Shown here piece by piece: positions 9,936 through 47,296 of a stretch of 64,000 nt of DNA. Both the position numbers and the translations under genes were made by a program. The notes beneath the pieces are model-generated. The model worked only from the letters and a program-made list of their open reading frames with translations. It was not told the DNA's origin and did not search any database. This stretch comes from an uncultured Bacteroidales bacterium (GTDB taxonomy: Bacteria > Bacteroidota > Bacteroidia > Bacteroidales > CAIWKO01): positions 2,241-66,240 of the forward strand of contig CAZRFL010000012.1 in assembly GCA_964599365.1 (NCBI GenBank). Reading direction: 5' to 3'. How positions within the stretch are numbered: the stretch's first letter is position 1; each line of letters starts with the position of its first letter.

Positions 9936-9936
9936 T

Positions 9937-11376: not shown

Positions 11377-13701
11377 ATGAAAACCGCAAAGAACAAATAT
11401 CTGCATCACGAATCCGCCGAAAAGCATGTCACCGGCAAGGCTGTTTACATAAACGATATGGCCGTGAGCGACAAAATGCTTTACGGAAAAGTGGTTTACA
11501 GTAGCGAACCTCATGCTAAGATCGTATCCTGCGAGTTCGAAAAAGCCAAAGCGCTGAAAGGCGTTCATGCCATTCTTACTTATAAAGACATTCCCGGACA
11601 GAATCAAATGGGGCCGGTTTTTCACGACGAGTCTTGTCTGGCTGTCGATGAAGTAAATTGTCTGGGTCAACCCATATTGCTGATAGCCGCCGAAAACGAA
11701 GCCATAGCGCTGGAAGCGGAAAAACTCATTAAGATCACTTACAAGCCCCTGCCGGCCATTCTCGATATAGCATCGGCCATTAAAAAAGATAGTAAAATAG
11801 CACCCACCCGCAAGATCGAAAGGGGAGATGTCGCGACTGCTTTTGCCAAAGCCAAACACATTCTCATAGGAGAATTGCATACCGGTGCCCAGGAGCATTG
11901 GTATCTCGAACCTCAGACCGCCCTTTGTGTACCCGGTGAAGATAAGGAAATGATGGTATATGCCTCCAGCCAAAACCCAGCCGAAACCCAGGCCATAGTG
12001 GCCGAAGTATTGGGAGTTCAGGCCAAGGATGTGGTTTGCGAAGTGAAACGCATGGGGGGTGGTTTCGGAGGTAAAGAAACCCAGGGCAATCATGTGGCTG
12101 CCTGGGCCGCTTTGCTGGCCAACAAGACCCGTCTTCCGGTTCTCTTCCATTTGTTCCGCGACGACGACCAGAAGATCACCGGCAAACGCCATCCCTTTTT
12201 CTCAACTTATAAGATAGCTTTCGACGATAAAGGTGTCATTACAGCCTACGAGATAGACCTGAATGCCGATGCCGGTCACGCCGCCGACCTGAGCATGGCC
12301 ATTTTGGAGCGTTCCATGCTGCATGCTGAGAATTCCTATTTTATCCCCAATATTAAAATCACGGCTACCGCCTGGCGCACCAATCATTTCTCCAATACCG
12401 CTTTTCGTGGTTTCGGTGGGCCTCAGGGCATAGCTGTCATCGAGCATGCCATCGACCGCATCGCACGTTTTCTGAAAAAAGATGCCACGGACATTCGCAA
12501 AAAGAACTTCTACCATGAGGGAAAAAATATCATTACCCCTTATGGACAAAAGCTGGAGAACATTCGCCTGCATACCATTTTTGATCAGTTGTTCATAAGA
12601 TCCGATTATGCCAAACGGAAAAAGGCCGTGGATGATTTCAACAAAAAGAATCCCCTTCAAAAGAAAGGCATTGCCCTGACTCCGGTCAAGTTCGGTATTT
12701 CTTTTACTACTGCCTTTCTCAATCAGGCGGGTGCTCTGGTCAATATTTATAAAGACGGCACCATGCTCGTCAATCATGGCGGCACCGAAATGGGGCAGGG
12801 GCTTAATACCAAAATGCTTCAGATCGCATCAGCCGAATCGGGTATTTCCCCCGAAAGTATCACCGTGAATGCCACCAACACTTCCAAGGTGCCCAACACT
12901 TCGGCCACGGCGGCTTCCAGCGGAACCGATCTCAATGGCATGGCAGTGAAAGATGCTATCGACAAGTTAAAAGTAAGAATGATTCCCATGGCTGTGGTTA
13001 TGCTGTCGACGAAATCAGAAAATACAAAGTGCCATTTTCATCACATCACCTTTGCCAATGATAAAGTTTTTGATTCCGAATGGCCCGATTGTTTTATCAC
13101 CATAAAGGAATTGATCGAAAAGGCTTATCTGGCCCAGATCAGTTTGAGTGCCACCGGCTTTTATAAAACTCCCGATATTTTCTTCAACCGCGACACCGGC
13201 ACAGGCAAGCCTTTCCACTATTTCGCCTACGGCATGGCTGTGGCTGAAGTACTCATCGATATCCTCACGGGAGCACACAAACTCCATCAGGTCGACATAT
13301 TGCACGATGTGGGCGAAAGCCTCAACCGCCCCATTGATATGGGACAGGTGACAGGAGCTTTTATACAGGGCCTGGGTTGGGTAACCACCGAGGAGATCAA
13401 ATGGGACGACAAAGGCCGCCTGCTCACCTATTCGCCCGACACTTATAAGATACCTTCAGCACAGGATATTCCCGCCATCTTTAATATCGATCTGCTGGAA
13501 GATGCCGCCAACTACAACACCATTCGTCAGTCCAAAGCCGTGGGCGAGCCGCCTTTTATGCTGGCTTTCTCGGTATGGATGGCCCTTCGCTATGCTGTTT
13601 CCGCCGTCGGAGATCATAAAACCGATCCCGACCTTCCCATTCCGGCCACCAACGAGAAGATATTGCTGGCGGTGGAGAAGTTGAGGAAAGGTGACAGGTA
13701 G
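11377..13701 (+). CDS. xdhB: xanthine dehydrogenase molybdopterin-binding subunit
   Basis: 774 aa with MGGGFGGKETQ, FRGFGGPQG and KAVGEPPF motifs. Its start codon directly follows the xdhA stop. Confidence 0.9.
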   Translation: MKTAKNKYLHHESAEKHVTGKAVYINDMAVSDKMLYGKVVYSSEPHAKIVSCEFEKAKALKGVHAILTYKDIPGQNQMGPVFHDESCLAVDEVNCLGQPILLIAAENEAIALEAEKLIKITYKPLPAILDIASAIKKDSKIAPTRKIERGDVATAFAKAKHILIGELHTGAQEHWYLEPQTALCVPGEDKEMMVYASSQNPAETQAIVAEVLGVQAKDVVCEVKRMGGGFGGKETQGNHVAAWAALLANKTRLPVLFHLFRDDDQKITGKRHPFFSTYKIAFDDKGVITAYEIDLNADAGHAADLSMAILERSMLHAENSYFIPNIKITATAWRTNHFSNTAFRGFGGPQGIAVIEHAIDRIARFLKKDATDIRKKNFYHEGKNIITPYGQKLENIRLHTIFDQLFIRSDYAKRKKAVDDFNKKNPLQKKGIALTPVKFGISFTTAFLNQAGALVNIYKDGTMLVNHGGTEMGQGLNTKMLQIASAESGISPESITVNATNTSKVPNTSATAASSGTDLNGMAVKDAIDKLKVRMIPMAVVMLSTKSENTKCHFHHITFANDKVFDSEWPDCFITIKELIEKAYLAQISLSATGFYKTPDIFFNRDTGTGKPFHYFAYGMAVAEVLIDILTGAHKLHQVDILHDVGESLNRPIDMGQVTGAFIQGLGWVTTEEIKWDDKGRLLTYSPDTYKIPSAQDIPAIFNIDLLEDAANYNTIRQSKAVGEPPFMLAFSVWMALRYAVSAVGDHKTDPDLPIPATNEKILLAVEKLRKGDR

Positions 13702-20413: not shown

Positions 20414-20803
20414 TTAGAAATTGAAATCGGCCATAGGCAACATCAATAGCCTTATGACCTCGATCACGCTCATCAGGGCATAAATACCTCCTATTACGAT
20501 CAGAATGATCTTCCATACCTTATTTTTTACAGTGAAAGCAAGTAGTATAGGAACCGCAGCCCAAATCAGGTTTACGAAATTGCCGAAATATCGCATACTA
20601 TGCCAATCGAAAGTATGAATCAGTGAGAACGCAGACCAAAAGAATTTCGAGAACATCATAAAGATAACGACCATAATGATTATGATGTCAGAGAACTTGC
20701 CTTTTTCGATGTTGCCTGATTCCAGAGATTGCAGACTATAGCCGCATTTGATACAATAAGAAGCATGAGTTTCGTTTTCTGTGTTGCAATGATTACAGAT
20801 CAT
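20414..20803 (-). CDS. zinc-ribbon domain membrane protein
   Basis: MICNHCNTENETHASYCIKCGY (CxxC...CxxC) is followed by 3-4 hydrophobic helices. Confidence 0.5.
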   Translation of the reverse strand: MICNHCNTENETHASYCIKCGYSLQSLESGNIEKGKFSDIIIIMVVIFMMFSKFFWSAFSLIHTFDWHSMRYFGNFVNLIWAAVPILLAFTVKNKVWKIILIVIGGIYALMSVIEVIRLLMLPMADFNF

Positions 20804-20847: not shown

Positions 20848-21765
20848 TTAATTCTGATCAGAATTTTTGTTGCTTGTCAGATATTTTTTCAAACGCAGTT
20901 GCGAAAGGGATAATCCCATGATCACGACGGCAATTCCTGCTATCTTTAGTGGTGTAAATTCTTCATGACCCATATGGTAAGAAAGAAAAGCAGTAATTAT
21001 AGGAATCAGATAAGTGAAAATGGAAGCCTTGGTAACTCCAATATGTTTGGTACCTATAGTAAAAAGGAAAAACGCCAGAGCCGAAGCAAAGATCGCCAGG
21101 GCGGTGATGTTGATGACCAATTCAGAATTTATCTGTACCGTTCTGAGAATATCAAAATCAAAGAGGATCAGCAGGGGCAGAAAATAGACGATGCCAATTA
21201 CATTCTGTGCCGAAATGATGGTGTAAGCATTGTATTTCTTTGTCAGACCCTGCAAAATATAGCTGTAACCCATCACACTGGCCACAGCAATCATAAGGAA
21301 TCCTATGCCCAGAGGGGATGCGGCAAAACTGAGATCTTTGTTCAGTACTACCATAAGGACTCCAATGAAAGCAATGAATATCCCGAAAAACGTTCCGGAA
21401 TTTATGGGTTCTTTTGCCAGGAAATACATAGAGAAAGGAACAAACAGGGGTATGGTGGAAATCACTATGGCGGCCACCGTGGGAGCTACATACTTTAGAC
21501 CATAACTTTCCCCCAGATAGTACATAAGTGGTTCGAAAAATGCCAGCAAGAGAAATTTATACAGGTCCTTCTTTTCTATCTTTTGCAATTTCCCCAAAAT
21601 AAGAGATAACCCCATAAGGAAGATAGAGGCAATTACCAGCCTTATGAAAACGGTGGAAATAGGATTCAGATATTTGAAGACATTTTGAGTCCAGATGTAG
21701 GAAAAACTCCAGAACACCATGGCCAGAACGAGTATTACGTAGATGAAAGCTTTGTTTGTCTTCAT
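20848..21765 (-). CDS. DMT-superfamily (EamA-like) transporter
   Basis: About 10 TM helices over 305 aa, starting at MKTNKAFIYVILVLAMVFWSFSYIW. The ORF-track N-terminal extension to 22104 overlaps the divergent OMT gene and is not hydrophobic. Confidence 0.8.
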   Translation of the reverse strand: MKTNKAFIYVILVLAMVFWSFSYIWTQNVFKYLNPISTVFIRLVIASIFLMGLSLILGKLQKIEKKDLYKFLLLAFFEPLMYYLGESYGLKYVAPTVAAIVISTIPLFVPFSMYFLAKEPINSGTFFGIFIAFIGVLMVVLNKDLSFAASPLGIGFLMIAVASVMGYSYILQGLTKKYNAYTIISAQNVIGIVYFLPLLILFDFDILRTVQINSELVINITALAIFASALAFFLFTIGTKHIGVTKASIFTYLIPIITAFLSYHMGHEEFTPLKIAGIAVVIMGLSLSQLRLKKYLTSNKNSDQN

Positions 21766-21828
21766 TTGGGAGTGCAAAAGTACACCATTATACTTAATCA
21801 ATATAATGCCCATCACAAAAAGTGTTGC

Positions 21829-21836
21829 TATATTTG
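21829..21836 (+). promoter_or_regulatory. -7 box TAnnTTTG for the OMT/radical-SAM operon
   Basis: TATATTTG lies 24 nt upstream of the ATG at 21860. Confidence 0.4.
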
Positions 21837-21859
21837 CATGAAAGAACCGAAACAGGCCA

Positions 21860-22960
21860 ATGACCGAAAAACTCAAGGACAAGAAACTACCCCCGCTTAT
21901 CATTATAAAAGCTACCATTGGATTAAGGAACTTCCTGGTCAGGCTTACCAAAAAGATGCTTCCTGCCAACTTCATTTTGCTGGAAGAGGCATCTGCATTC
22001 TGGAAAGCGAAATCAATAGAAGTAGCAGCAAGACTTAACATCCCCGACTTTCTGGAAAAAGGACCTATGAGTATTGAAAAACTGGCCGAGCTTTCCCAAA
22101 GCAATGAAGATGCGCTCTACAGGGTGTTGAGGGCGCTATCCGGCGAAGGTATATTTAAAGAATTACCGGGTCGAAGGTTTAAAAATACAAGGCTCTCCAG
22201 GGCTTTTATGATGAAGCAGGAATCTGTGAAGTACTTTGTGATGCATCACCTGGGAGAAAACAACTGGGACCTGGTGGGCGATTTATACAACTGTGCTAAA
22301 ACAGGAGAGAATGCCATCACCCATAAATTCAAAATGCCTCCTTTCGAGTATCTGGCTCAAAACCCTGAAAAGAATGACATGTTTAATAAGGCCATGACCG
22401 AAACAGCCGAATTGTCGGGGAGCATCTTTGTGAATGCTTATAATTTTGGGAAATACCAACTCATTGTCGATATTGGGGGTGGTCAGGGACACTTGCTGGC
22501 TCAGATCTTACAAAAATATCAGAACTCGCAGGCTATTTTGTTCGACCAGCCGCATGTTGTCACGGAAGCGACGGCACTGCTGCAGAGCAAGGGCGTGGAA
22601 AGCCGGTGCAACATCGTCTCAGGAAGTTTCTTTGAAGAGATACCTGCCTCGGGCAATCTGTATATCATGAAGAATATTTTGCACGATTGGGATGATGCTA
22701 CTTCGGAGGCCATACTTGCCAATATTCATAAAGCCATGCCTGCCGACAGCAGGCTGCTGATCATAGAAACCATTATCAAACCCAATAACAAGCCGTCGTT
22801 TGGTAAATTCATAGACCTTCAGATGCTGATAGGAACCATAGGAGGCAAAGAACGAACCCTGCCGGAGTTCGACAACCTCTTAAGGAAAGCGGGATTCAGC
22901 ATAAACCGGGTAATAGAAAATGCCACTCCATTCAGTTTTATTGAGGCTGTGAAACGATGA
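21860..22960 (+). CDS. class I SAM-dependent O-methyltransferase (Methyltransf_2 / COMT-CrtF-like, with N-terminal dimerisation domain)
   Basis: WKAKSIEVAARLNIPDFLEKGPMSIEKLAE (winged-helix dimerisation region), the SAM motif VDIGGGQGHLLAQI, and YIMKNILHDWDD. An alternative start at M33 (21956) is possible. Confidence 0.8.
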   Translation: MTEKLKDKKLPPLIIIKATIGLRNFLVRLTKKMLPANFILLEEASAFWKAKSIEVAARLNIPDFLEKGPMSIEKLAELSQSNEDALYRVLRALSGEGIFKELPGRRFKNTRLSRAFMMKQESVKYFVMHHLGENNWDLVGDLYNCAKTGENAITHKFKMPPFEYLAQNPEKNDMFNKAMTETAELSGSIFVNAYNFGKYQLIVDIGGGQGHLLAQILQKYQNSQAILFDQPHVVTEATALLQSKGVESRCNIVSGSFFEEIPASGNLYIMKNILHDWDDATSEAILANIHKAMPADSRLLIIETIIKPNNKPSFGKFIDLQMLIGTIGGKERTLPEFDNLLRKAGFSINRVIENATPFSFIEAVKR

Positions 22961-24381
22961 AAAAAGTACTGCTGGTAAACGTAAATACCGAAAAAGCCCC
23001 CTATCCTGTGCCTCCCATAGGATTGTGTATTATTGCCCAAAGCATTGAGGATAGTTTTGAAGTGGAGGTTTATGATGGCATGTTTGATGAGGGCAGGAAT
23101 CTCGAAGCGGCTGTGACGCGATTTCAACCCGATTTCATTGGTTGCAGCATTCGCAACATTGATTCCATGTCGATTCAGACCAAAGATTTTTTTCTGGATA
23201 AGGTGAATGAGGTATTTATAAAGCCCCTCCGAAAGTATTCTCAGGCCTCCATCATTCTCGGGGGAAGCGGATTCAGTATCTATCCTTATGAAACTCTGAA
23301 TTATCTTGATGTTAACTACGGCATCATTGGCGAAGGGGAAGAAACTTTCAAAGAATTATTACTGGCACTGGAAAACCATACGGACCTGGCCCTAATCAAA
23401 GGTGTTGCCTGCCGTGATTTTCCGGAGGAACTCAGGTTGAAGAAACTTACCAGCCCTCATCCCATAGCGAAATATCATTCCGGTATTTACAAGTACATTG
23501 ATTTCTCAGCTTACGAAGAAAGAGGTGCCTATTCCATACAAACCAAACGAGGTTGTGCCCACAAATGCATTTACTGCACCTACCCCGTGATTGAAGGTAA
23601 GAAATTTCGCAGCCGCACCGCTGTGGATATTGTGGATGAAATTCAGAGGGTTTATGAAAAACTGGGGAATATCTGTTTTGAGTTTGTTGATTCTACCTTT
23701 AACGACCCCAGGGGGCATGCAGAAGCCATTTGTCATGAAATTATTGAGCGTAACCTAAAAGTGAGGTTGCGGACCATGGGCATCAATCCCGACAATACCA
23801 GCGAGGAATTGTTCCTGCTGATGAAAGAGGCAGGATTCTCCCAGATAGATTCTACGCCCGATACCGCCTCGGAAGTTATGCTTAAGAATCTCGGAAAGAA
23901 TTTCACTCTGGCAAGACTGGAGGAAATGGCTGTGCAACTGATGAAGGTGAACATTCCCACCATGTGGTTCTTTGTGTTTGGAGGCCCGGGAGAAACTTAC
24001 CAGGCCATTGATGAAACCTTTGCTTTTATCGAGCATTTCATTTCTGAAAAGGACCTGGTGTATATTGCCACCAGTCTGCGCATCTATCCCAAAACAAAAC
24101 TCTATGACATAGCTTTGGCAGAAAATATGATTTCGGCGGAAGACAATCTGCTGAAACCCGTTTTTTATGAGAATCCACAGTTTCCCCATGAGGAGATTAG
24201 CCGCTATCTGAGGGAAAAGATTGGGAAAAAACACAATATCCTTTTTACTTCCGATGCCCGCCCTTCGCCCGAAATGATGCAGCAAGCCATGCAGATACGC
24301 AGGGAACAGGGGTTTGATGAGCCCATGTTCCGGACTTTGCTAAGTCTGAGAAAAATCTGGATTGCTGAAGGCAAACTATAG
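22957..24381 (+). CDS. B12-binding-domain radical SAM protein (class B)
   Basis: The N-terminal Rossmann-like region MKKVLLVNVNTEKAPYPVPPIGLCIIA is followed by the CX3CX2C motif TKRGCAHKCIYCTYP. The start overlaps the OMT stop (ATGA). Confidence 0.85.
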   Translation: MKKVLLVNVNTEKAPYPVPPIGLCIIAQSIEDSFEVEVYDGMFDEGRNLEAAVTRFQPDFIGCSIRNIDSMSIQTKDFFLDKVNEVFIKPLRKYSQASIILGGSGFSIYPYETLNYLDVNYGIIGEGEETFKELLLALENHTDLALIKGVACRDFPEELRLKKLTSPHPIAKYHSGIYKYIDFSAYEERGAYSIQTKRGCAHKCIYCTYPVIEGKKFRSRTAVDIVDEIQRVYEKLGNICFEFVDSTFNDPRGHAEAICHEIIERNLKVRLRTMGINPDNTSEELFLLMKEAGFSQIDSTPDTASEVMLKNLGKNFTLARLEEMAVQLMKVNIPTMWFFVFGGPGETYQAIDETFAFIEHFISEKDLVYIATSLRIYPKTKLYDIALAENMISAEDNLLKPVFYENPQFPHEEISRYLREKIGKKHNILFTSDARPSPEMMQQAMQIRREQGFDEPMFRTLLSLRKIWIAEGKL

Positions 24382-24456
24382 ATGTTACAGGAAAAAGGTT
24401 TATTTTTATCGTAAATTCCTGCAAAGGGAGCACTAAAACCAAAACCATTACGACTC

Positions 24457-26385
24457 ATGAGGATACTACTGATCAGCCCGGGCACAGCTGACGAAATTGA
24501 CAATAAAGTGATCAGGCAGATCCCTTATCTCTATGCCAAAGCTTTCAATGCCCCTCATGCCATTGCCACCGTGGCGGCCCTCACGCCTGCGGAGCACGAA
24601 GTGGTGCTTCACGATGAATACATGCGCGGGCCTTCGGAAGAATTTCTGCCTGGTAAAGAATTCGATATCATTGGGATTTCGGTTACCTCCAACCAGCTGC
24701 AGCGCAGTCTGACCATTGCAGCCGCCTGTCGTAAATTTTGTCCTAAGGCAACCATAGTCGCCGGGGGGATAGGAGTGGAGACCCTCATTTATAAAAATAA
24801 GGACGACATTGATGTGGTGGTTCATGGGGAAGCAGAAGAAACCTGGCCCAAGTTTCTGGAAGATTTCAAGAACGGGAAATACCTTAAGGTTTATAAAAGC
24901 CTTACCAAACCCGATATGACCAAAACCCCGGCTCCTCGTTGGGATCTGTTGGGTGAGGACATCATTCATTATAACTCGGTTTCGGTGCAGACCACCCGCG
25001 GATGTCCTTTCGACTGCAGTTTTTGCGATGTGATCTATACCTACGGACGCAAACCGCGCAGTAAGACCATTGAGCAGGTGCTGGAAGAGATTCGCCGGCT
25101 GAACGAACTGAAGGTGATGATGGTGTTTATAGCCGACGATAATTTTGCCGGCGACAAGAAGTATGTGAAGGAACTCTTGCGGCAGCTGATAGTGCTGAAC
25201 AATTCCTTTAAGATACCCATGGGCTTCTTTACCCAGCTGGATATCACGGTGGCTCAGGACGACGAACTGCTGCAACTGCTGGCCGATGCCAATTTCTATA
25301 ACCTCATGATTGGGGTGGAGTCCATCAATGCCGAATCGCTGAAGGACATGAACAAAAAGCAGAACATGGGAATTTCGGCGGTGGATGCCATCAAAAAGAT
25401 ACAATCATACGGCATGGCGGTGCTGGTGCATATGATCATAGGCTGCGATTCCGATGGGCCGGATGTGTTTAAGCATACCGCTCAGTTTGTTCAGGACGCC
25501 CACATTGTTTTTCATATCTGCCATCCGCTGGCAGCCCCTCCGGGAACCAAAATGTGGTACGATTACAAACGCAACGGACGTCTTATCACCACCGAGCATG
25601 AAGAAGCCAGCGATAAAATGGATATCCTCACCAACATCATCCCCAAACAAATGACGAGGATAGAGCTGTTGGAAGGACTGGCCAATTACTGGGATCATGT
25701 GTATACGCATGAGAAGTTCTACGACAGGGCCATGGGTTTTATCAACGGTATCAAATACAAACCCAAGGTGAAGCCTCCCGGTTTGCCCGATCTGTGGGCC
25801 CTGCGGAAGTTGGTGGGTGGGGTTTTCAAATATTATATGTTCAAAGCCGAAAAGGCCGACCGCAAGACCTTTTTCAAAATATTGGGCAAATCGAAAAAGA
25901 AACTCAGTTTCCTGATGCCCAAGATCATCTACATGTACACTTTCTTCCTGATCGATTGCATGCGCTCGAAGTATGATGCTCAGGTGGCCCGCGAAATGGC
26001 CCAATGGGAAAGAGAACATCCCGAAAAGATCAAAGTGGATTCTTGCGAGATACCAGTTTCGGAGACCATACGCGAAAATGCCAAGAGCCTGGTGACCGAT
26101 GCCTTTACGCATGTGAGGGAGAAAACCGATAGCAAAGAGCTTCTGTATAAAGCCGTGGTGAGCGCCATGTTGGACTTCAGCGACCGCTTCGGAGATACTT
26201 TCACTGTGTACGATGAGTTCCAGAAAGAGCACCTAAAAAGCGCCTGCGAACGTGCCCTGGGACAGGATATACCAAAGGAAGCATGCACTACCGTTACTCT
26301 AGCCGATACCCCGCCACCCTTCTTCACCCGCGAGATCATGGATGCTTTGGATAATGCGGTAAGGTATAGGAATATGTATAGTTAG
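24457..26385 (+). CDS. B12-binding-domain radical SAM protein with long DUF4070-like C-terminal extension
   Basis: MRILLISPG...IGISVTSNQ (B12-like fold) and TTRGCPFDCSFCDVIY (CX3CX2C). A helical C-terminal region of about 250 aa resembles those in BchE/HpnP-type enzymes. Confidence 0.85.
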   Translation: MRILLISPGTADEIDNKVIRQIPYLYAKAFNAPHAIATVAALTPAEHEVVLHDEYMRGPSEEFLPGKEFDIIGISVTSNQLQRSLTIAAACRKFCPKATIVAGGIGVETLIYKNKDDIDVVVHGEAEETWPKFLEDFKNGKYLKVYKSLTKPDMTKTPAPRWDLLGEDIIHYNSVSVQTTRGCPFDCSFCDVIYTYGRKPRSKTIEQVLEEIRRLNELKVMMVFIADDNFAGDKKYVKELLRQLIVLNNSFKIPMGFFTQLDITVAQDDELLQLLADANFYNLMIGVESINAESLKDMNKKQNMGISAVDAIKKIQSYGMAVLVHMIIGCDSDGPDVFKHTAQFVQDAHIVFHICHPLAAPPGTKMWYDYKRNGRLITTEHEEASDKMDILTNIIPKQMTRIELLEGLANYWDHVYTHEKFYDRAMGFINGIKYKPKVKPPGLPDLWALRKLVGGVFKYYMFKAEKADRKTFFKILGKSKKKLSFLMPKIIYMYTFFLIDCMRSKYDAQVAREMAQWEREHPEKIKVDSCEIPVSETIRENAKSLVTDAFTHVREKTDSKELLYKAVVSAMLDFSDRFGDTFTVYDEFQKEHLKSACERALGQDIPKEACTTVTLADTPPPFFTREIMDALDNAVRYRNMYS

Positions 26386-26390
26386 GGAGA

Positions 26391-26512
26391 GGTATTTAGT
26401 CTTTAGTATATGGTATTTAGTATTTAGTATATAGTAGTCGCCATTAACGGCATACCAAATACGAAAGGACAAATAACGAGTACCATATACCATATACCAT
26501 ATACCAGATACC
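26391..26512. repeat. stuttered imperfect inverted repeat between convergent genes
   Basis: The left arm uses GGTATTTAGT/TAGTATATGGTAT words (26391-26437). The right arm is TACCATATACCATATACCATATACCAGATACC (26481-26512), the reverse-complement word set. Confidence 0.7.
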
Positions 26513-27849
26513 TATTTCCCCGTATAATTCTGCGGTGTTATGTTTCTTAATTCTTCTTTAACGGCTTCGTTCACCGCAAGGGTTTCAATAAATTCCTGTA
26601 TACTTTCTTTGGTGATGGCCTGATGGGTGCGGGTGAGGGCCTTGAGGGCATTGTATGGATCGGGATAGTTTTCGCGGCGCAAAATGGTCTGTATGGCTTC
26701 GGCTACTACGGCCCAGTTGTGTTCCAGATCGGAGGCTATCTTGGTTTCGTTGATGAGGAGCTTGTCGAGGCCACGTTTCAGCGATTTCAGGGCTATGAGC
26801 ATATGAGCCACAGGCACGCCAATGTTGCGGGTGACGGTGGAATCGGTGAGGTCGCGCTGGAGGCGTGATACGGGAAGTTTTTCGGACAGGAATCCGAACA
26901 AGGCATTAGCCAGTCCGAAGTTGCCTTCGGCATTCTCGAAATCTATGGGATTTACCTTATGCGGCATGGCCGAAGAACCAACCTCATCCTTTTTGATCTT
27001 CTGACGGAAATAATCCATGGAAATGTAGGTCCACATATCGCGGCAGAGGTCGGTGCTGATGGTGTTGATACGTTTCAGGGTGTCGAAATAGGCGGCAAGG
27101 TTGTCGTAATGCTCAATCTGAGTGGTGCATTGCTGACGTTTCAGACCTATACGTTCGAGAAATTTATTGGCGAAAGCATGCCAGTCGAAGTCGGGATAGG
27201 CAACACAATGGGCGTTAAAATTGCCCGTGGCACCCCCGAACTTCCCTTCGAAGGAAATGATGTCGAAATATTTGAACTGTCCTTTCAGTCGCTCGGCAAA
27301 TACATTGATCTCCTTGCCCAGACGGGTAGGAGAGGCGGGCTGACCGTGAGTGCGCGCCAGCATGGGAATGTTTTTCCATTCGTGGGCCAACAGGCTGAGA
27401 TGGTCGGTGATGAGGGTGAGCATGGGCAGCAACACATTGCTGTGGGCTTCCTTCATCAGCAGGGGCATTGCGGTGTTGTTGATGTCCTGTGAGGTAAGAC
27501 CGAAATGTATGAATTCCTTGTATTTCGAGAATCCCAGCTCATCGAACTTCTGTCGCATGAAGTATTCCACCGCTTTCACATCATGATTGGTGACGGCTTC
27601 GTATTCCTTTACTTTGGCGGCATCCTGCAGGCTGAAATCGCCGTAGATGTTGCGTATCTTATACAGATCGTCGGCGCTGACTTCCCACAGGGCAGGCAGC
27701 ACGGGACAAAGCTCGATGAAGTATTCCGCTTCCACATACACCCGCTTTTTGATGAGGGCATATTCCGAAAAATAATCAGAGAGGATTTCGGTGGCTTTGC
27801 GATAGCGGCCATCGACGGGCGAAACGGCGGTCAAAGAATTGAGTTCCAT
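26512..27849 (-). CDS. purB: adenylosuccinate lyase
   Basis: SPVDGRYRKAT start, THGQPASPTRLGKE, and GSSAMPHKVNPIDFEN, the fumarate-lyase signature. Confidence 0.9.
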   Translation of the reverse strand: MELNSLTAVSPVDGRYRKATEILSDYFSEYALIKKRVYVEAEYFIELCPVLPALWEVSADDLYKIRNIYGDFSLQDAAKVKEYEAVTNHDVKAVEYFMRQKFDELGFSKYKEFIHFGLTSQDINNTAMPLLMKEAHSNVLLPMLTLITDHLSLLAHEWKNIPMLARTHGQPASPTRLGKEINVFAERLKGQFKYFDIISFEGKFGGATGNFNAHCVAYPDFDWHAFANKFLERIGLKRQQCTTQIEHYDNLAAYFDTLKRINTISTDLCRDMWTYISMDYFRQKIKKDEVGSSAMPHKVNPIDFENAEGNFGLANALFGFLSEKLPVSRLQRDLTDSTVTRNIGVPVAHMLIALKSLKRGLDKLLINETKIASDLEHNWAVVAEAIQTILRRENYPDPYNALKALTRTHQAITKESIQEFIETLAVNEAVKEELRNITPQNYTGK

Positions 27850-28011: not shown

Positions 28012-30063
28012 CTATTGTTTTACGATCTTCCTGACGGCTATGCTTTCGTCGGAGGAGATGACCCTGACCATATACAGTCCTTTGGTCAGGCCCGAGAGAT
28101 CAAGGGCTTTTCTGCTTCCTCCGGCCCCGGCTGACAGTATCAGTTGACCTTCGATATCGTAGACCTCTATGGTTTTGAGATTGGCATCCGATTCAATATA
28201 CAGGTAGTCCTGGGTTGGGTTGGGGAAGATCTGCAATATGGGTGCCTGAGTTATTTCGCTAAAGCCTACGTTGGGGCAATAGCCCGGCATGTTAGCGTCG
28301 AGCCAGGCCAGCCTGACCTTGATCCAGTTCTTGAACTTTTGAATCTCGCCCGCATAGGTGAGGGGCTGATTATCCACTTCGGGCGTGCCAACATTCACAC
28401 CCAGTATGGGCCATTTCTTGTAATGACGCAGCTGAGCCTCATTTACCAGGGATTGCACCGAATCGACAAAATGGAACATATAGGTGGTGTCGAGAATATT
28501 GCGCCGCAAATTGAAATAGCGGCAGTTCAGCTTATGGGTGAAGGCTGTATCCTGCATCATCCTGACCGCCCATCCCGAAGAATTGTTGTCGGGGCTACAA
28601 TCGTTCACTTTGTAGGCCCATCCCGAGCCATCGGTGACGGCAAACATAGGACATTCGTTGATGTTCTTCCATGCCCAATCGTAATCCCAAACGGGACCTG
28701 TTTGCAGCAGTGGATTCTTGCTGTCCTTGTCCTTATACATGTAGACGCTTTTCTTGAAGCCATCGTTGTTGCGCGAAAGCTCGCTCAGAATGAAATAATC
28801 GATAAAGGAATCCACATCGAGCCAGGCACGGTAGCCGGTGACGGGATTGGCGAAATTGCTGCCGTAGAGGGCCGCTTCCAGCGAATGGTAGAAGCCCTGA
28901 ATGTAAGTTTTCTGCTGGGGGGTGATCACATCGAATTCCGGATAATCGTACACATAATACACATCGGAAGTGGGATGGTCGTAGGGATGAAAATCGGACA
29001 GCCAACTGTTGCTGCCATCATGATAATCCAGTTTCACTATGTAGCCTCCCGTCAGGCTGTCGTTGGCATTGTCGTCGAGGTCGAGTTTGGAAATGTCGAC
29101 ACGCTTGTTGTCGCGCTTGATCTTTTCGGTCATCACATAAATGCCCTGGTAGCTTCCGTTGATCATCACCTCGCAAAAGCGGGTGCGGGGCGCATAGCGG
29201 TCCATCATGCGCGCAAGCTTGAAAGGGAGGGCATTTCGCATAAAAACCTTGTCGTTGTAAACGGCCAGCAATATCCAGTCGTTTTCGGAAGGCATGCCCA
29301 GCAGGGCGGTATCTAGGTTTTCGCCGAAAGCATCGCGGGTCTCAAATCCGTACGGCTTCTGGGGCAGGGAGGCAGAATAGGAGCCGCGTATCTCAATGCC
29401 CACTTTGCCGTTGTAAACATTGGGGACATCGGTGGGATGATTGTAGAGGCCCAATCCGTGATAAATTATCTTCATGCCGGCGTTGATCTTGGGTTCGTCC
29501 GAAATTTCCTGTCCGTAGGTGTCGATGAGCACCAGGGGAAGCACGGTGGAATCGACAGTGAGGGGTGCGGTGGCGTTGTTGCCGAAAGTGATGGACCAGT
29601 TGAGCAGGTTTCCTGCATCCTGAGCATAGGTGTCGGTGATCTTCAGCTTCCAGGTGCCGTTGCCGTTCTGTCCGTTGTTCACGTTGCCCATTATATCCAT
29701 GGGGCCAAAACTGCCCGTGAAAGGAGCCGCACCGGAGGTGATGTTGTTGCTGGCACTGCCCACGAGGCAGGTGTTGGTGAAATTGTCGTCGCCTCCGCCT
29801 ATGCCGCCAAACAAGAGTATCTCGGTTTGGTCGGGGGCCACCAGTTTCACATTGAGGTCGCTGTCGTAGGTGTGGGTGATGCTCAGGCAAACGCTGACCA
29901 ACCCGTGAGAGGCATTGAGCAACGAGGGCGACAGTCCGCTGACATTGATGGTGAAATAATTGGGCTGGTTGTCGTCGCTGATGCTACCGCCGCTACCGTT
30001 AAAGGTTTGGGCACTGAGTTGTGTGGTAAGCAGTATGCAAAGAAGGAGTAGGGTTCGTTTCAT
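28012..30063 (-). CDS. CotH-family protein with N-terminal proprotein-convertase P-domain and T9SS type-A CTD
   Basis: Signal peptide. P-domain-like region (ITHTYDSDLNVKLVAPDQTE...GTWKLKITDTYAQDAGNLLNWSITF). CotH core (MTEKIKRDNKRVDISKL...GGYIVKLD). C-terminus FPNPTQDYLYIE...GLYMVRVISSDESIAVRKIVKQ. Confidence 0.8.
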   Translation of the reverse strand: MKRTLLLLCILLTTQLSAQTFNGSGGSISDDNQPNYFTINVSGLSPSLLNASHGLVSVCLSITHTYDSDLNVKLVAPDQTEILLFGGIGGGDDNFTNTCLVGSASNNITSGAAPFTGSFGPMDIMGNVNNGQNGNGTWKLKITDTYAQDAGNLLNWSITFGNNATAPLTVDSTVLPLVLIDTYGQEISDEPKINAGMKIIYHGLGLYNHPTDVPNVYNGKVGIEIRGSYSASLPQKPYGFETRDAFGENLDTALLGMPSENDWILLAVYNDKVFMRNALPFKLARMMDRYAPRTRFCEVMINGSYQGIYVMTEKIKRDNKRVDISKLDLDDNANDSLTGGYIVKLDYHDGSNSWLSDFHPYDHPTSDVYYVYDYPEFDVITPQQKTYIQGFYHSLEAALYGSNFANPVTGYRAWLDVDSFIDYFILSELSRNNDGFKKSVYMYKDKDSKNPLLQTGPVWDYDWAWKNINECPMFAVTDGSGWAYKVNDCSPDNNSSGWAVRMMQDTAFTHKLNCRYFNLRRNILDTTYMFHFVDSVQSLVNEAQLRHYKKWPILGVNVGTPEVDNQPLTYAGEIQKFKNWIKVRLAWLDANMPGYCPNVGFSEITQAPILQIFPNPTQDYLYIESDANLKTIEVYDIEGQLILSAGAGGSRKALDLSGLTKGLYMVRVISSDESIAVRKIVKQ

Positions 30064-30125: not shown

Positions 30126-31658
30126 TTATTCTCCCTTAGCAGGCAATTGCAAAATAATCTCAAACTGATCCTGAGTCCCGGCCTCTTGGATGGCGGACCA
30201 GCGGTCGGCATGTATGAGTTTTATTTGCTGATCGTGATAAACAATGATGTCGGTGGTTTCCATCAGGTCGATGTATTTGTCGAGCCTGGAACGGTTGGGT
30301 AAGGTGAGTTTTTCTATCCTTTCGGGTGCAATAAGCGAAAGCCTCTGTGTATGCAACTCTTTTTGCTCTTTTTCCTGAAGCATCTCCATCTCCACTTCTG
30401 CCTGCTTTTCGAGCCTGAGCTTTTCCAAACGGCTTTGGTAGTCCTCTTCGGTAAGCATGCCGTTGTTCCTGCGTTTCAGCAAGGATGCGGCCAGATCGAG
30501 GCTGCGGCATTTCACCTTAATTTCTATGGTTTTTTGTTCGAATTCTGTTTCGCTGATCTCGCCTTTCGCTTTGGATTCCGCAAGCAGATTCAGTTCCTGC
30601 GTTTCCATTTTCATAGGACTTAAGGGTAAGTGGGCCATTGAGGCATCCTCATCCGGTTCATCCTCATGAAATTTGTTGTAGTTGATCCCCAGCAGCACCA
30701 GTATGGCAACATAGTAGCTGCATAAAAACAGAATCCCGGCAACCTCGACCTCATGTAACTGAATTATCATCAAAACCACGCACGAAAGGACGCCCAGCAC
30801 TGCCATCAGGCGGTTCTTTTTTATGTGCCATATCACGGCAACGCCCATCACCAGCGTGAAACCTGTGGCAATAAGATTTAATAAGGCAATAAACGAAGTG
30901 AGGCCGTTGAGTTGAAGTGCAATGACTAAAGAAAATAAAAACCAAAATGCGGGAAGCACTATCATCATTATCCCAGCAACTATCAGAGCGGCATTTTTTC
31001 GCTTTTTGGGCAGAGGTACATCCTTAACATCGGCCACCACTCTTTTGGCCAGATCGAGACGGGGATCTTTTGCCACGGGGGGAGTAACCACCGGCGCCGC
31101 TTCGACAGGGGGAGGTATCACAGGGGCGGGTTCAGGGGCATCTGCGACAACCATGTTATGATCTCTGATGCCTTCGCGGGTGCTGCGGCGCATCAGAAAA
31201 TAGGCTCCGACAAGAAATGTGGCTGCATACAAGCCGTAGACAATCACCATGAAAAATGTCATGAAAGCGGGTATTTCGTTTACACTGAAGAAAAGAAATC
31301 CCATGGACTGCATAAATATGGCCATCAATATTAAATAAATCACGCAAACTTTCCTTCCCCATTCTTTAAATTTATTTAAGGCACGAGCCCCGAAAAACAT
31401 GGGAATCCAGATAATAGAAAATGAAAGGGACAAAACCGTATAATGGGAAAAAATCCAACCAATAAATTCTGGGATTATAGGGAAATTCTTATTTGCATGG
31501 TGGATATGGCTTATCTGGTCCATTTCTGGAAACATAAACATCGACATCAAGGCAGCTATGATATTACTGGAAAATCCAATAATTGATGTTACAAGTAATA
31601 TTATGCCTATAATTTTGGCTGCATAAAGTCGTTTGTCCAGTTTCTTTTTAGGGCTCAT
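30126..31658 (-). CDS. polytopic membrane protein with Pro-rich linker and SHOCT-like C-terminal repeats
   Basis: Two clusters of TM helices are separated by APEPAPVIPPPVEAAPVVTPPV. The cytoplasmic tail carries KAKGEISETEFEQK and NNGMLTEEDYQSRLEKL (SHOCT-like). Start taken at MSPKKK; an alternative ATG lies at 31721. Confidence 0.5.
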   Translation of the reverse strand: MSPKKKLDKRLYAAKIIGIILLVTSIIGFSSNIIAALMSMFMFPEMDQISHIHHANKNFPIIPEFIGWIFSHYTVLSLSFSIIWIPMFFGARALNKFKEWGRKVCVIYLILMAIFMQSMGFLFFSVNEIPAFMTFFMVIVYGLYAATFLVGAYFLMRRSTREGIRDHNMVVADAPEPAPVIPPPVEAAPVVTPPVAKDPRLDLAKRVVADVKDVPLPKKRKNAALIVAGIMMIVLPAFWFLFSLVIALQLNGLTSFIALLNLIATGFTLVMGVAVIWHIKKNRLMAVLGVLSCVVLMIIQLHEVEVAGILFLCSYYVAILVLLGINYNKFHEDEPDEDASMAHLPLSPMKMETQELNLLAESKAKGEISETEFEQKTIEIKVKCRSLDLAASLLKRRNNGMLTEEDYQSRLEKLRLEKQAEVEMEMLQEKEQKELHTQRLSLIAPERIEKLTLPNRSRLDKYIDLMETTDIIVYHDQQIKLIHADRWSAIQEAGTQDQFEIILQLPAKGE

Positions 31659-31917
31659 AATGTCTTGTGGGTTAAAGTAAGTAGTGTTTTTTTTCGTGAA
31701 CAAATTTAATATTATTCTCAAACGGATAAAATTTTTTCACTATGGTCCGATTAAAAAAATATCGCGTCCCATACGGAACTTAAATGTCTTTTTTTAATCG
31801 CTATTCTACCAATATTTTGTCCCTATGGGACAATCCCATTTAGGATTGAATATGGGGTTGCTTTATCGTCCTATAAAAGTGAATAAAATATCTTTTTTTT
31901 ATTCGTTAATCTACTGC

Positions 31918-35425: not shown

Positions 35426-36754
35426 ATGAAGATCTTTGAGAAACTCTTCCAACTGAAGCAGAACGAAACCAACGTCCGCACCGAGATACTTGCAGGCATC
35501 ACCACCTTTGTAGCGGCCATGTACATCATAGTCGTCAATCCGGCCATAGTATCAGCCACCGGCATGCCCTTCAGCGCCGTACTCACAGGAACCGTTATAC
35601 TAAGCGCATTTTGTACCATCATGATGGGCCTCTATGCCAACAACCCCATACTGATAGCGCCCGGCATGGGATTGAATGCCTTCTTCACTTACTTTGTGGT
35701 GGTAGGAATGAAAGTCCCCGTGGAAGAAGCCCTGGGAGCCTTGTTTTGGGCAGGAGTTATTTTCTTTCTTTTGTCGGTGTTCAACATACGCTCTTATATC
35801 GTCAAAGCCATTCCCAAACAAATTCGTTATGCCATTGCGGGCGGCATAGGCCTCTTCATTGCCATGATAGGATTTGTGAATGCCAAATTCATAGTGGTAA
35901 AAGAGCCTTTCATCGGACTTGGGCACTTCAACCTTATGTCCCTCATCTTCATTGCAGGACTCATAATCACCGCCATACTGGTCGTCAGAAAAGTAAAAGG
36001 GGCCATGATCATCAGCATGCTTATCATAACCCTGATGTGCCTGCCCATAGGGCGTTGGTTTGGCGATGCTACCACTTACAACAACGGAGTGAGTACCCTC
36101 ATCAATTACAAAGGTTTTTTCCAGTCGCCCGATTTCAGTTTCTTCTTCCGCCTCGATCTGGTAAATTCATTGAAATGGGCCTTATGGCCTGTGATATTCG
36201 CGGTGATATTCACCGATATGTTCGACAGCCTGTCCACTTTCGTGGGAGTTTCCGAAGCCGCCAACCTGGTGGATAAGAATGGGGAACCCCGCAACATCAA
36301 GCAATCCCTCATTGTCGATTCCGTGGCTACGGGAATGGCAGGATTGATTGGAACCACCTCGGGCACGGCCTACATAGAATCCGCTTCGGGAGTGGCGGCC
36401 GGAGGCCGCACCGGATTAACTGCCGTGGTAGCAGGTTTGTTGTTCATTCCGTTCATGTTCTTTTCTCCTTTGCTTTCCATGATACCCTCGGTGGCAACGG
36501 CTCCGGTACTGGTCATGGTAGGCGTTTATATGATGAAGCCTGTGCTGAAGATACGCTGGGATAAACTGAGCTTCGCCATACCTTGTTTCATTGCCATGTT
36601 CCTCATCCCGCTCACCTATTCCATCACCCAGGGCATCATCTGGGGGCTGTTGTTTTATACTATCGTCATGCTGGTCACGGGCAAATTTAAAGAGATCAGC
36701 CTTACCCTCATCATCATCAATATTCTTTCTGTACTTTTGCTGATCTTTGAATAA
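35426..36754 (+). CDS. NCS2/AzgA-family purine (adenine/guanine/hypoxanthine) permease
   Basis: FQLKQNETNVRTEILAGITTFVAAMYIIVVNP and SGTAYIESASGVAAGGRTGLT are hallmark AzgA/PbuG segments. Confidence 0.85.
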   Translation: MKIFEKLFQLKQNETNVRTEILAGITTFVAAMYIIVVNPAIVSATGMPFSAVLTGTVILSAFCTIMMGLYANNPILIAPGMGLNAFFTYFVVVGMKVPVEEALGALFWAGVIFFLLSVFNIRSYIVKAIPKQIRYAIAGGIGLFIAMIGFVNAKFIVVKEPFIGLGHFNLMSLIFIAGLIITAILVVRKVKGAMIISMLIITLMCLPIGRWFGDATTYNNGVSTLINYKGFFQSPDFSFFFRLDLVNSLKWALWPVIFAVIFTDMFDSLSTFVGVSEAANLVDKNGEPRNIKQSLIVDSVATGMAGLIGTTSGTAYIESASGVAAGGRTGLTAVVAGLLFIPFMFFSPLLSMIPSVATAPVLVMVGVYMMKPVLKIRWDKLSFAIPCFIAMFLIPLTYSITQGIIWGLLFYTIVMLVTGKFKEISLTLIIINILSVLLLIFE

Positions 36755-46621: not shown

Positions 46622-47272
46622 TTAATTCGATCTGGTATAAACCGTCGTTCCATTATAAATGATACCGGAAACTGAATCAGTAAAGTTTATTTCAAATATG
46701 GTATGATCGTTTATGGTCTTGATGAAACCCTCACCTGAAAATGCATGGGTTTGAGCTGGAGAACCGGCATTCACAATCTGATGCGGAATATTAATAGTGT
46801 CGTTTCTTAGGTCAGCATAAACAACGGCAGTTGCAATATCAGAATATCCTACCACCCAAACACGTTTGTTCAGTATGTTCGAAACAGTCGATACCGCTTG
46901 GTAATAAGTGGTGTCAGTTCCTATTACTGCCATAGCATTATAGTTGCCATTATACTCTTCAGCTTCATTCCTGACCACAACGGTACGTATGGCTTCAGCC
47001 TGATTCCCTGCTGCATCCATTGCCGTATATTTTATATAGTAGTTACCGGCAAAGTTCGTGTCAACTGTCCCTTCACTACTAACTGACAGTATGCCATCAG
47101 CATTGTCGGTGGCTGTCGCTCCGGCATCAGTATAGGGCGTATTTAAGGTGACAATTATAAGGGAAGAGCCTTTTATGGTTATTTCCGGAAGTGTCTCATC
47201 CTTTTTTGAGCAGCCGGCGACCAGAATAAAAATGAATAGGGATATGATAATGGGAAATTTCACAGACTTCAT
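46622..47272 (-). CDS. DUF5011 domain lipoprotein with paralogue-specific C-terminal domain
   Basis: Lipobox VAGC. A DUF5011 module is followed by a C-terminal module of about 110 aa (INIPHQ...FSGEGF) shared with the next two genes. Confidence 0.7.
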   Translation of the reverse strand: MKSVKFPIIISLFIFILVAGCSKKDETLPEITIKGSSLIIVTLNTPYTDAGATATDNADGILSVSSEGTVDTNFAGNYYIKYTAMDAAGNQAEAIRTVVVRNEAEEYNGNYNAMAVIGTDTTYYQAVSTVSNILNKRVWVVGYSDIATAVVYADLRNDTINIPHQIVNAGSPAQTHAFSGEGFIKTINDHTIFEINFTDSVSGIIYNGTTVYTRSN

Positions 47273-47296
47273 TTTTAATAATGCAATTAGGTGTTA

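Follow-up and report, generated by a model that had tools for sequence, protein, structure and literature searches.

A compact operon for one O-methyltransferase and two cobalamin-type radical SAM enzymes in an uncultured Bacteroidales bacterium: a candidate satellite module for tailoring a phenolic lipid

Gene sets that combine cobalamin-dependent radical S-adenosylmethionine (SAM) enzymes with a CrtI-like oxidase were first noted in Kuenenia and Desulfotalea, and genome miners label them "ladderane" clusters (PMC2649909). Many anaerobic phyla that make no ladderanes are predicted to have clusters with this label (PMC9902471, PMC13459092). Flexirubins are phenolic and consist of a 4-hydroxyphenyl-polyenoic acid esterified to a dialkylresorcinol; their aromatic C-methyl group comes from methionine and was assumed to lie ortho to the hydroxyl (no other substitution pattern has been observed in flexirubins), its position not having been confirmed in the strain studied (PMC3992019). 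Pairs of lolA2 and lolB2 have been reported only in flexirubin-like pigment loci (PMC11885536). Here we describe an operon that recalls both kinds of cluster and lies apart from them. It is found in a 64,000-nucleotide stretch of DNA (hereafter, the window) from an uncultured Bacteroidales bacterium (GenBank assembly GCA_964599365.1, contig CAZRFL010000012.1, positions 2,241 to 66,240 of the forward strand), and it comprises genes for an O-methyltransferase (OMT) and two class B (cobalamin-type) radical SAM enzymes (rSAM-1 and rSAM-2), divergent from a gene for an EamA transporter.

The products of the trio are three tailoring enzymes that use SAM; none of them builds a scaffold. Our preferred reading, which we hold tentatively and at somewhat less than an even chance, is that the operon serves as a satellite module for tailoring, in which a phenolic lipid produced elsewhere, of the flexirubin-like or "ladderane-like" type II fatty acid synthase (FAS) and aryl-polyene family, is O- and C-methylated. 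Gene structure, domain content, conserved motifs, synteny, and the clusters around the homologues are what the analysis shows; from these we infer the substrate class, the order of the steps, the chemistry that each radical SAM enzyme carries out, a role for EamA, and that a scaffold pathway exists elsewhere in the genome. The first-pass annotation, made from the sequence alone, had guessed at a lipid or small-metabolite tailoring module with dedicated export. The lipid part of that guess gains real support, as each of the three enzymes has its nearest relatives in a conserved flexirubin-like type II FAS cluster of anaerobic Bacteroidota; the trio did not prove to be a fixed unit.

The operon and its relatives in a lipid gene cluster

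The OMT gene (21860 to 22960, + strand) encodes a 366-aa COMT-type SAM-dependent O-methyltransferase with the Pfam domains Methyltransf_2 and Dimerisation. Its stop codon overlaps the start codon of rSAM-1 (22957 to 24381, + strand; 474 aa) as ATGA, and rSAM-1 carries the motif CAHKCIYC together with the Pfam domains B12-binding and Radical_SAM. After a 75-bp spacer (24382 to 24456), rSAM-2 follows on the same strand (24457 to 26385; 642 aa), with the motif CPFDCSFC, a DUF4070 domain, and a large C-terminal helical domain. The EamA/DMT transporter gene is divergent (20848 to 21765, − strand) and encodes 305 aa with two EamA repeats (PF00892, 138 bits). All four genes were found in the open reading frame (ORF) listing where the first-pass annotation had placed them; Pfam domain content upheld their identities, and the ATGA overlap, the 75-bp spacer, both cysteine motifs, and the DUF4070-like tail were borne out. 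One detail changed. The mechanical EamA ORF (20848 to 22104, − strand) is too long, and with the sensible start, the ATG at 21765, the divergent gap between EamA and OMT is 94 bp and not 95 bp.

The evidence for a lipid substrate comes from the relatives. A neighbor-joining tree of rSAM-1 homologues recovered the window clade (23 sequences) as monophyletic and sister to a clade of 104 sequences that are 46 to 52% identical to the window protein. Eleven of 16 sister-group loci lie in a conserved type II FAS cluster, and at two more, both in Fibrobacterota, FAS-type genes are ∼3 kb away, with hisD and a flotillin gene between. One arm of this cluster encodes a GT2 glycosyltransferase, an MMPL-acyltransferase-methyltransferase fusion, a CrtI-like oxidase, a C45 acyltransferase, and a 423-aa B12-radical SAM enzyme. 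At its center, a divergent gene for a 446-aa B12-radical SAM enzyme is followed by the rSAM-1 homologue. The second arm encodes FabD, an acyl carrier protein (ACP), a ketosynthase (KS), a 3-hydroxyacyl-CoA dehydrogenase, a 531-aa B12-radical SAM enzyme, a KSIII, two enoyl-CoA hydratases (ECH), a thioesterase, an ApeI-like dehydratase, a 212-aa protein (LolB2), and LolA. The cluster total, including the rSAM-1 homologue, is four B12-radical SAM genes. On the NCBIfam model NF053540, "flexirubin biosynthesis protein LolB2," its 212-aa protein scores 79.8 bits and exceeds the cutoff of 60. Further, the KSIII is DarB/StlD-like (87.5 bits for DarB, under the cutoff of 550), and the oxidase is CrtI/CrtD-like. 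Neither a tyrosine ammonia-lyase nor a CoA/coumarate ligase was present in the readable cluster flanks, which held only regulators and housekeeping genes.

The other two enzymes lead to the same place. The nearest nonorthologous relatives of OMT, at 44 to 46% identity (L104 to L106 and L126) and 38 to 39% identity (L020 and L023), occupy the final position in the arm that begins with GT2 and includes a radical SAM gene, and in reciprocal searches the nearest relatives of these cluster OMTs were the EamA-linked OMTs. For rSAM-2, the best identified paralogue is the 531-aa radical SAM enzyme of the cluster (192 bits, 32% identity over 485 aa), and the match to this cluster enzyme (30 to 33% identity) is stronger than that to any NCBIfam family. 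By these sequence comparisons, the closest identifiable relatives of all three window enzymes belong to a single cluster type.

A sub-module consisting of a 423- to 426-aa B12-radical SAM enzyme, a 125- to 128-aa protein, and the OMT recurs in the cluster (L105:8310-11104 and L020:38-7162). In L020 and L023, genes for two large proteins (650 aa and 794 aa) interrupt this sub-module just ahead of its OMT. Neither the 650-aa protein of L020 nor the 125/128-aa and 240-aa proteins beside OMT homologues had a match in NCBIfam or Pfam, and the 794-aa protein of L020 matched only CarboxypepD_reg-like domains in Pfam.

The chemistry that we propose would begin with OMT, which would O-methylate a phenolic hydroxyl, on either an aryl head group or a resorcinol ring. 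Then rSAM-1 would methylate a carbon of the same compound, with methylcobalamin as the methyl donor. The target would plausibly be an sp2 carbon (aromatic or polyene), because the nearest characterized relatives of rSAM-1 are BzaD and TsrM, an argument by analogy. A further cobalamin-dependent alkylation or rearrangement would be added by rSAM-2, and EamA may move a small substrate or product. Such a module would serve the outer-membrane lipid-pigment pathways of anaerobic Bacteroidota.

Several observations weigh against the satellite module. Genes for KS, ACP, FabD, ECH, and other scaffold enzymes are found nowhere in the 64-kb window. One scan of genome contigs, pattern-limited and therefore weak, found no metagenome-assembled genome (MAG) with both a window-type and a cluster-type rSAM-1, and the window-type enzyme could work without the cluster. 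The anaerobic cluster also has a methyltransferase domain of its own, in the MMPL fusion, and aerobic flexirubin clusters use FlxJ; given these other methyltransferases, aryl methylation may not be the task of the radical SAM enzymes. No lipid genes occur within 10 kb in three of four relatives in which the OMT-rSAM pair lies outside the window clade or is dispersed, and the rSAM-2 orthologues at 57 to 63% identity are solitary genes with unrelated neighbors. The score of rSAM-1 falls short of the cutoff of its best family, TIGR04072, by 29 bits. Moreover, the product and the radical SAM reactions of the "ladderane-like" cluster outside anammox bacteria are still called unknown (PMC9902471, PMC13459092).

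The operon nevertheless holds three of the enzyme types of an orphan cluster in a compact, scaffold-free unit and offers a tractable entry point for expression and enzymology. Beyond that, the result is a well-supported annotation upgrade for genes of uncultured Bacteroidales now called "hypothetical" or "radical SAM," and it shows no new principle by itself.

Enzyme families and active sites

Membership of rSAM-1 in class B is supported by its scores on B12-binding PF02310 (54.1 bits; cutoff, 32.1) and Radical_SAM PF04055 (74 bits; cutoff, 29.5) and by C200, C204, and C207, which are invariant across 121 sequences. Its best NCBIfam match was TIGR04072, "lipid biosynthesis B12-binding/radical SAM protein" (331.1 bits; cutoff, 360), with an alignment from end to end (residues 3 to 462 against model positions 1 to 442 of 443). 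The cluster-embedded homologues from Bacteroidota score about the same on this model (323 to 330 bits) and are also under its cutoff. The second-best family was BzaD, TIGR04385 (199.3 bits, E value of 1e-58; cutoff, 450; model positions 18 to 435 of 438), and the third was the TsrM type (117 bits; cutoff, 500); the remaining families scored far lower. Classification against the NCBIfam hidden Markov models (HMMs), a check proposed in the first-pass annotation, has thus placed rSAM-1 closest to TIGR04072, BzaD, and TsrM, with a score under the cutoff in each case. Two enzymes named there as comparators turned out to be distant: HpnR scored 43.8 bits for rSAM-1 and 79.9 bits for rSAM-2 (cutoff, 650), and BchE scored 71.9 and 76.6 bits, respectively (cutoff, 481). 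Neither HpnP nor the archaeal glycerol dialkyl glycerol tetraether ring synthases appeared among the 24 matches listed for rSAM-1 or the best 25 of 28 for rSAM-2, and NCBIfam may hold no models for them.

By sequence, the best solved structure for rSAM-1 was TsrM (PDB 6WTE/6WTF; 105 bits). Arg69 of TsrM lies under the cobalamin, and Glu273 caps the [4Fe-4S] cluster, which precludes radical chemistry (PMC12931638). A HMMER alignment placed R66 of rSAM-1 at Arg69, and this residue is invariant in all 121 sequences. The position of Glu273 is taken by T247 (Thr in 119 of 121) and that of Glu236 by Y209 (Tyr in 121 of 121). Set against the features of a TsrM-type nonradical methylase, rSAM-1 has the arginine and lacks the glutamate cap. 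With threonine and tyrosine in place of the two glutamates, its cluster should be free to bind and cleave SAM. The alignment suggests that rSAM-1 combines a TsrM-like cobalamin environment with an uncapped [4Fe-4S] cluster, and this unusual mix of markers in the family bears on the question of polar versus radical methyl transfer in class B.

The classification of rSAM-2 draws on both sequence and model. The protein scored 68 bits on Radical_SAM PF04055, 35.8 bits on DUF4070 (cutoff, 22), and 29.1 bits on B12-binding PF02310, slightly under the cutoff of 32.1, and C183, C187, and C190 are invariant across 50 sequences. An AlphaFold (AF2) model had a mean predicted local distance difference test (pLDDT) score of 86.5 and a predicted TM-score (pTM) of 0.86. 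The best Foldseek matches to this model were TsrM (top), AprD4, CysS, MgmA, and TokK, and those to TsrM, CysS, TokK, and MgmA had a probability of 1.0. These results predict a class B radical SAM enzyme. As the TM-scores on query length were ≤0.51, presumably only the two N-terminal domains match, and the helical C-terminal ∼240 residues of the model would be without a structural match. No NCBIfam family came near its cutoff for rSAM-2.

The assignment of OMT to the COMT type (Methyltransf_2) is supported by PF00891 Methyltransf_2 (154 bits) and PF08100 Dimerisation (49 bits), that is, by the dimerization domain, a DxGGGxG motif, and a putative catalytic histidine. The best solved structure was 6C5B (LaPhzM, a phenazine O-methyltransferase; 229 bits over residues 34 to 363), followed by AlpH (181 bits) and by CalO6 and MmcR (173 to 174 bits). 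AlpH is an O-methyltransferase-like enzyme that is described as installing a diazo group. The SAM motif DIGGGQG, the LHDWDD block (which holds the putative catalytic His), and the ERT motif of OMT align to all four of these proteins and are conserved. From this alignment, OMT is predicted to be a COMT-type phenol methyltransferase. A BchU/CrtF identity (TIGR02716) was considered and rejected, since OMT reached 49.9 bits against a cutoff of 276; a parallel with chlorophyll tailoring by BchU, BchQ, and BchR was set aside on the same score and because OMT is far closer to the phenol O-methyltransferases. EamA, with its two repeats, belongs to the DMT/EamA family. Every NCBIfam equivalog was far under its cutoff for this protein, including those for the named exporters YedA (42 bits) and YddG (25 bits).

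Judged by these models, no enzyme of the trio belongs to a characterized family at the equivalog level. The earlier statement that the trio matches no described pathway stands, as every NCBIfam equivalog was under its cutoff. Close homologues with a demonstrated function, which would have told against it, did not appear, the source names being only "radical SAM protein" or "methyltransferase." A literature search on TIGR04072, on ladderane-type clusters in Bacteroidota, and on aryl polyenes with B12-radical SAM enzymes found no functional study.

The BzaD match raises another explanation, which we consider very unlikely: that the trio works like bzaC, bzaD, and bzaE in making the lower ligand of a cobamide. 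OMT would then methylate 5-hydroxybenzimidazole (or its riboside or ribotide), rSAM-1 would add the ortho C-methyl group, and rSAM-2 would turn the resulting methoxy-methyl intermediate into 5,6-dimethylbenzimidazole. The lower ligand would be remodeled from a scavenged precursor, possibly imported by EamA. The enzyme types and the gene order do match bzaC-bzaD-bzaE, a formal parallel that the first-pass annotation had not drawn, and BzaD, the second-best family of rSAM-1, is covered over its full model length. BzaD is also thought to be a TsrM-like methylase of sp2 carbons (PMC12931638), and rSAM-1 keeps the equivalent of TsrM Arg69. The BzaD score is, however, less than half its cutoff of 450, and TIGR04072 scores higher. 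A comparative genomics study that built bza HMMs treated BzaD and BzaE together owing to their similarity (PMC6461909), and rSAM-2 reached only 28.2 bits on the BzaD model. No cobalamin riboswitch was detected in the window by Rfam, neither bzaA, bzaB, bzaF, cobT, nor any other cob gene was present in the neighborhood, and the closest relatives of OMT and rSAM-1 lie in the FAS-type lipid cluster and not in cob loci. If this explanation were true, it would mean lower-ligand remodeling in Bacteroidales.

The likeness to BzaC and BzaD also allows a broader extension of the satellite reading, which we regard as improbable but worth stating. OMT and rSAM-1 would form a general anaerobic module that O-methylates a phenol and then C-methylates the ring, a parallel to BzaC-BzaD recruited to phenolic lipids, and its products would be new methoxy/methyl-aryl (or resorcinol) lipids in strictly anaerobic Bacteroidales. 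Here rSAM-1 would be a hybrid of TsrM and canonical class B enzymes, and rSAM-2, with its unmatched C-terminal helical domain, would carry out a new reaction, possibly a BzaE-like exchange of the methoxy group for a methyl group. In that case, working out this small operon would offer the first way into the chemistry of the widespread orphan "ladderane-like" clusters.

Gene order, transcription, and surroundings

The closest database relatives are uncultured Bacteroidales MAGs. The full layout, with EamA divergent from OMT-rSAM-1-rSAM-2 and purB beyond, recurs on independent contigs at 90% rSAM-1 identity (L006/L007/L015) and again at 70% (L008), 68% (L009/L010), and 60% (L152); the partial contigs L014 and L094 agree with it. 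We do not regard the arrangement as a product of chance, because the same order is kept on independent contigs down to 60% identity. The first-pass annotation had made its reading depend on synteny of the three genes in other genomes. That synteny exists from 90 to 60% identity, but the trio does not always travel as a unit: its three genes are dispersed in lineages at 61 to 66% identity, and only the divergent EamA-OMT pair stays linked. In L001/L011 and L151, a block of 11 kb, purB among its genes, separates rSAM-1 from rSAM-2, and OMT stays elsewhere with EamA and is followed by pyrimidine genes in L096 to L103 and L107. EamA is divergent from OMT at every OMT orthologue locus at 61 to 91% identity, including loci without rSAM genes. 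Within the window clade, the match lists of OMT, rSAM-1, and rSAM-2 would seem to share contigs (of 6914, 4776, 7847, 6366, 6848, 10121, 34651, 23316, and 140702 bp). The same contig matching gave no link for cluster-type homologues among the matches listed (120 per protein). A single-protein scan of genome contigs was uninformative and returned mostly class B radical SAM proteins of 24 to 30% identity from unrelated phyla, with no OMT or lipid genes.

Outside the window clade, OMT-rSAM-1 pairs recur at 48 to 52% identity in two other operon types. On a 4.86-Mb Bacteroidales contig (L153), OMT (52%) and the rSAM-1 homologue (48%) are tightly paired and follow a gene for a 240-aa protein, and the rSAM-2 orthologue lies 3.3 Mb away. 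In L154, OMT (51%) stands between a 446-aa radical SAM gene (rSAM_L4a-like) and the rSAM-1 homologue (49%). The robust couplings are OMT with rSAM-1 and EamA with OMT; the link to rSAM-2 consists of a lineage-specific adjacency and of co-occurrence. The gene for the 240-aa protein (L153:9282-10004) overlaps the OMT start by 4 nt. On the same 4.86-Mb contig, a 1,095-aa flavoprotein with Fer4_20 and Pyr_redox_2 domains (L012:6675-9962) is encoded 38 bp upstream of the solitary rSAM-2 orthologue, on the same strand, and is possibly a dedicated electron donor.

These distributions lend weight to an explanation that we find unlikely, though less so than the other alternatives: that the trio is not one pathway, with OMT-rSAM-1 as a two-gene unit and rSAM-2 as an independent, widely conserved Bacteroidales enzyme with a substrate of its own. 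The solitary rSAM-2 orthologues with unrelated neighbors are numerous. The ∼11 kb between rSAM-1 and rSAM-2 in L001/L011 and L151, the 3.3 Mb on the L153 contig, and the different type of radical SAM enzyme beside the OMT of L154 point the same way. Against independence, the same-strand adjacency of rSAM-1 and rSAM-2, with a spacer of 49 to 108 bp, is kept from 90 to 60% identity, and the window spacer has no −7 promoter motif. Wherever contigs were long enough for a check, the rSAM-2 orthologues shared a genome or contig with OMT/rSAM-1, and the closest identified paralogue of rSAM-2 belongs to the same lipid cluster as the relatives of the other two enzymes.

A gene found only in some relatives bears on the substrate. 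An NDH-2-like flavoprotein gene (Pfam Pyr_redox_2 and NDH2_C) lies between EamA and OMT, 29 to 55 bp upstream of OMT and on its strand, in L006/L007/L015 and L008 (L006:7594-8874, L007:1026-2306, L008:2710-4035). Its product may serve as a redox partner, or its presence may point to a quinol-like substrate. One may accordingly imagine a redox-active aromatic cofactor or metabolite, a (mena)quinol or a phenazine-like compound, that is reduced to a phenol, O-methylated, and C-alkylated, with EamA exporting the product; we give this only a slim chance. It is in keeping with the phenazine O-methyltransferase as the best solved structure for OMT and with the divergent EamA-OMT pair as the most persistent linkage, which survives where the radical SAM genes have moved away. 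The NDH-2-like gene is, however, missing from the window, L009, and L152, and its product matches only generic pyridine-nucleotide-disulfide oxidoreductase families in NCBIfam. No quinone or phenazine biosynthesis genes lie nearby. The known anaerobic C-methylases of menaquinone (MenK/MqnK), moreover, are class C and not class B radical SAM enzymes.

The promoter elements were sought as TAnnTTTG, the Bacteroidota −7 motif, and by comparison among the gaps of relatives. A sigma-70 scan had given 16 matches against 13.3 expected in shuffled sequences and was discarded as the wrong model for Bacteroidota. Putative −7 elements stand back to back in the divergent gap: TACTTTTG for EamA (21775 to 21782, − strand), 10 nt upstream of its ATG, and TATATTTG for the OMT operon (21829 to 21836, + strand), 24 nt upstream of the OMT ATG. 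The block GCAAAAGTA is kept in 13 of the 15 short EamA-OMT gaps compared, with variants in the gaps of L009/L010 and L152. On the OMT side of the relatives' gaps, related T-rich elements occur at the same place (for example, TCTTATTTTTAC or TATTTGTACTTTTAC) and are off the strict consensus. The same motif search found no −7 element in the 75-bp spacer, which is consistent with cotranscription of rSAM-2.

Between the convergent rSAM-2 and purB genes lies an imperfect heptad-repeat hairpin of 124 nt (26390 to 26513). Its RNA fold has a free energy of −30.5 kcal/mol (z = −3.3), and none of 200 shuffles was as good. Tandem Repeats Finder (TRF) resolved the region into two heptad arrays, GTATTTA (6.4 copies) and TACCATA (4.6 copies), that pair together. 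The hairpin is a probable bidirectional terminator, and its heptad-repeat form is unusual for one. From the ATGA overlap, the spacer without TAnnTTTG, the back-to-back −7 elements, and the terminal hairpin, we infer that OMT, rSAM-1, and rSAM-2 form one transcription unit, divergent from EamA and possibly from a zinc-ribbon gene cotranscribed with it. Translation of rSAM-1 would be coupled to that of OMT through the overlap.

The zinc-ribbon gene (20414 to 20803, − strand) lies downstream of EamA and encodes a 129-aa membrane protein (Pfam Zn_Ribbon_1, 28 bits); it adjoins EamA in relatives at 44 to 80% identity. Pfam and NCBIfam scans showed that the flanks, ∼12 kb on each side, contain housekeeping genes and genes for type IX secretion system (T9SS) cargo, a gene content that marks the host as a member of the Bacteroidota. 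The EamA side carries, besides the zinc-ribbon protein, a T9SS pectate-lyase-like protein, sufD, a murA-like gene, and the xanthine dehydrogenase set, and the rSAM-2 side carries purB, a T9SS CotH protein, and an SBF-like transporter. The same scans detected no peptide-precursor, FAS, or cob genes, and the earlier observation that no SPASM domain, peptidase, polyketide or nonribosomal peptide synthetase, or pigment gene lies near the trio holds for these flanks. An Rfam search of the whole 64-kb window at gathering thresholds returned 0 matches and hence no riboswitch clue. We rejected a maturation system for ribosomally synthesized and posttranslationally modified peptides (RiPPs): there is no precursor gene, SPASM/twitch domain, or peptidase, the 94- and 75-bp spacers hold no plausible peptide gene, and RiPP methylase families reached only 43 to 69 bits in NCBIfam against cutoffs of 282 to 750.

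Other features of the window are recorded here in their own right. A xanthine-dehydrogenase-type set (XdhC, a FAD/[2Fe-2S] subunit, and a molybdopterin subunit) and a xanthine/uracil permease (9171 to 13701 and 35426 to 36754) suggest purine catabolism in this anaerobe. A 683-aa protein (28012 to 30063, − strand) has a proprotein-convertase P-domain, a CotH kinase domain, and a T9SS C-terminal sorting domain and would be a secreted CotH-type kinase. Three tandem paralogous Bact_surface_Ig-like proteins of ∼215 aa (46622 to 48811, − strand) stand at the edge of the stretch of lowest GC content (48000 to 52000; 0.34 to 0.36, against an average of ∼0.44), and together they may be a variable surface-protein island. 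Citrate lyase is encoded at 50438 to 53327 (+ strand), with a CitD-like acyl carrier and a CitE-like lyase fused in one 446-aa protein, followed by CitF. Finally, the ORFs at 30126 to 31721, 37435 to 38916, and 40249 to 41826 (all − strand) had no Pfam match at an E value of ≤1e-5. A further large ORF lies in the same stretch at 38918 to 40249 (− strand), and this set of large ORFs spans 443 to 531 aa.

Comparison with known systems

The enzyme classes of the trio are well known, and what is new is the arrangement, a satellite module built from the parts of a known but orphan cluster type. Flexirubin loci (flx/dar, with LolA2-LolB2) are resembled by the relatives' cluster, which has LolB2, LolA, a DarB/StlD-like ketosynthase, a type II FAS, and a thioesterase and, further, an ApeI-like dehydratase, a glycosyltransferase, and an MMPL exporter-acyltransferase. 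In contrast, the described flexirubin loci come from aerobes, have no B12-radical SAM enzymes, and use the class I methyltransferase FlxJ, and the window itself lacks every core gene of such a locus (the type II FAS core, LolA2/LolB2, the exporter, and the acyltransferase). The TIGR04072 family, known from the ladderane-type FAS clusters of Kuenenia and Desulfotalea, has no demonstrated reaction in reviews from 2023 to 2026 (PMC9902471, PMC13459092). The sister clade of rSAM-1 shares its setting, an FAS cluster with CrtI-like oxidases and several radical SAM enzymes (11 of 16 loci), whereas the window trio stands outside any FAS context and rSAM-1 is under the family cutoff.

At the level of single enzymes, the rSAM-1 family is like TsrM in keeping the arginine under the cobalamin and unlike it in having Thr247 and Tyr209 where TsrM has the capping Glu273 and Glu236. 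OMT shares with LaPhzM, CalO6, and MmcR the dimerization domain, the DxGGGxG motif, the HDW histidine, and the ERT motif and differs in an extra N terminus of ∼33 residues. A described system of like layout is BzaC-BzaD-BzaE. It differs from the trio in that rSAM-2 is not BzaD/E-like and in its company of bzaA/B, cobT, and a riboswitch. It is alike in placing a SAM-dependent O-methyltransferase before two cobalamin radical SAM enzymes in the same order, and its phenol O-methylation followed by ring C-methylation is the model for the chemistry proposed here for the trio.

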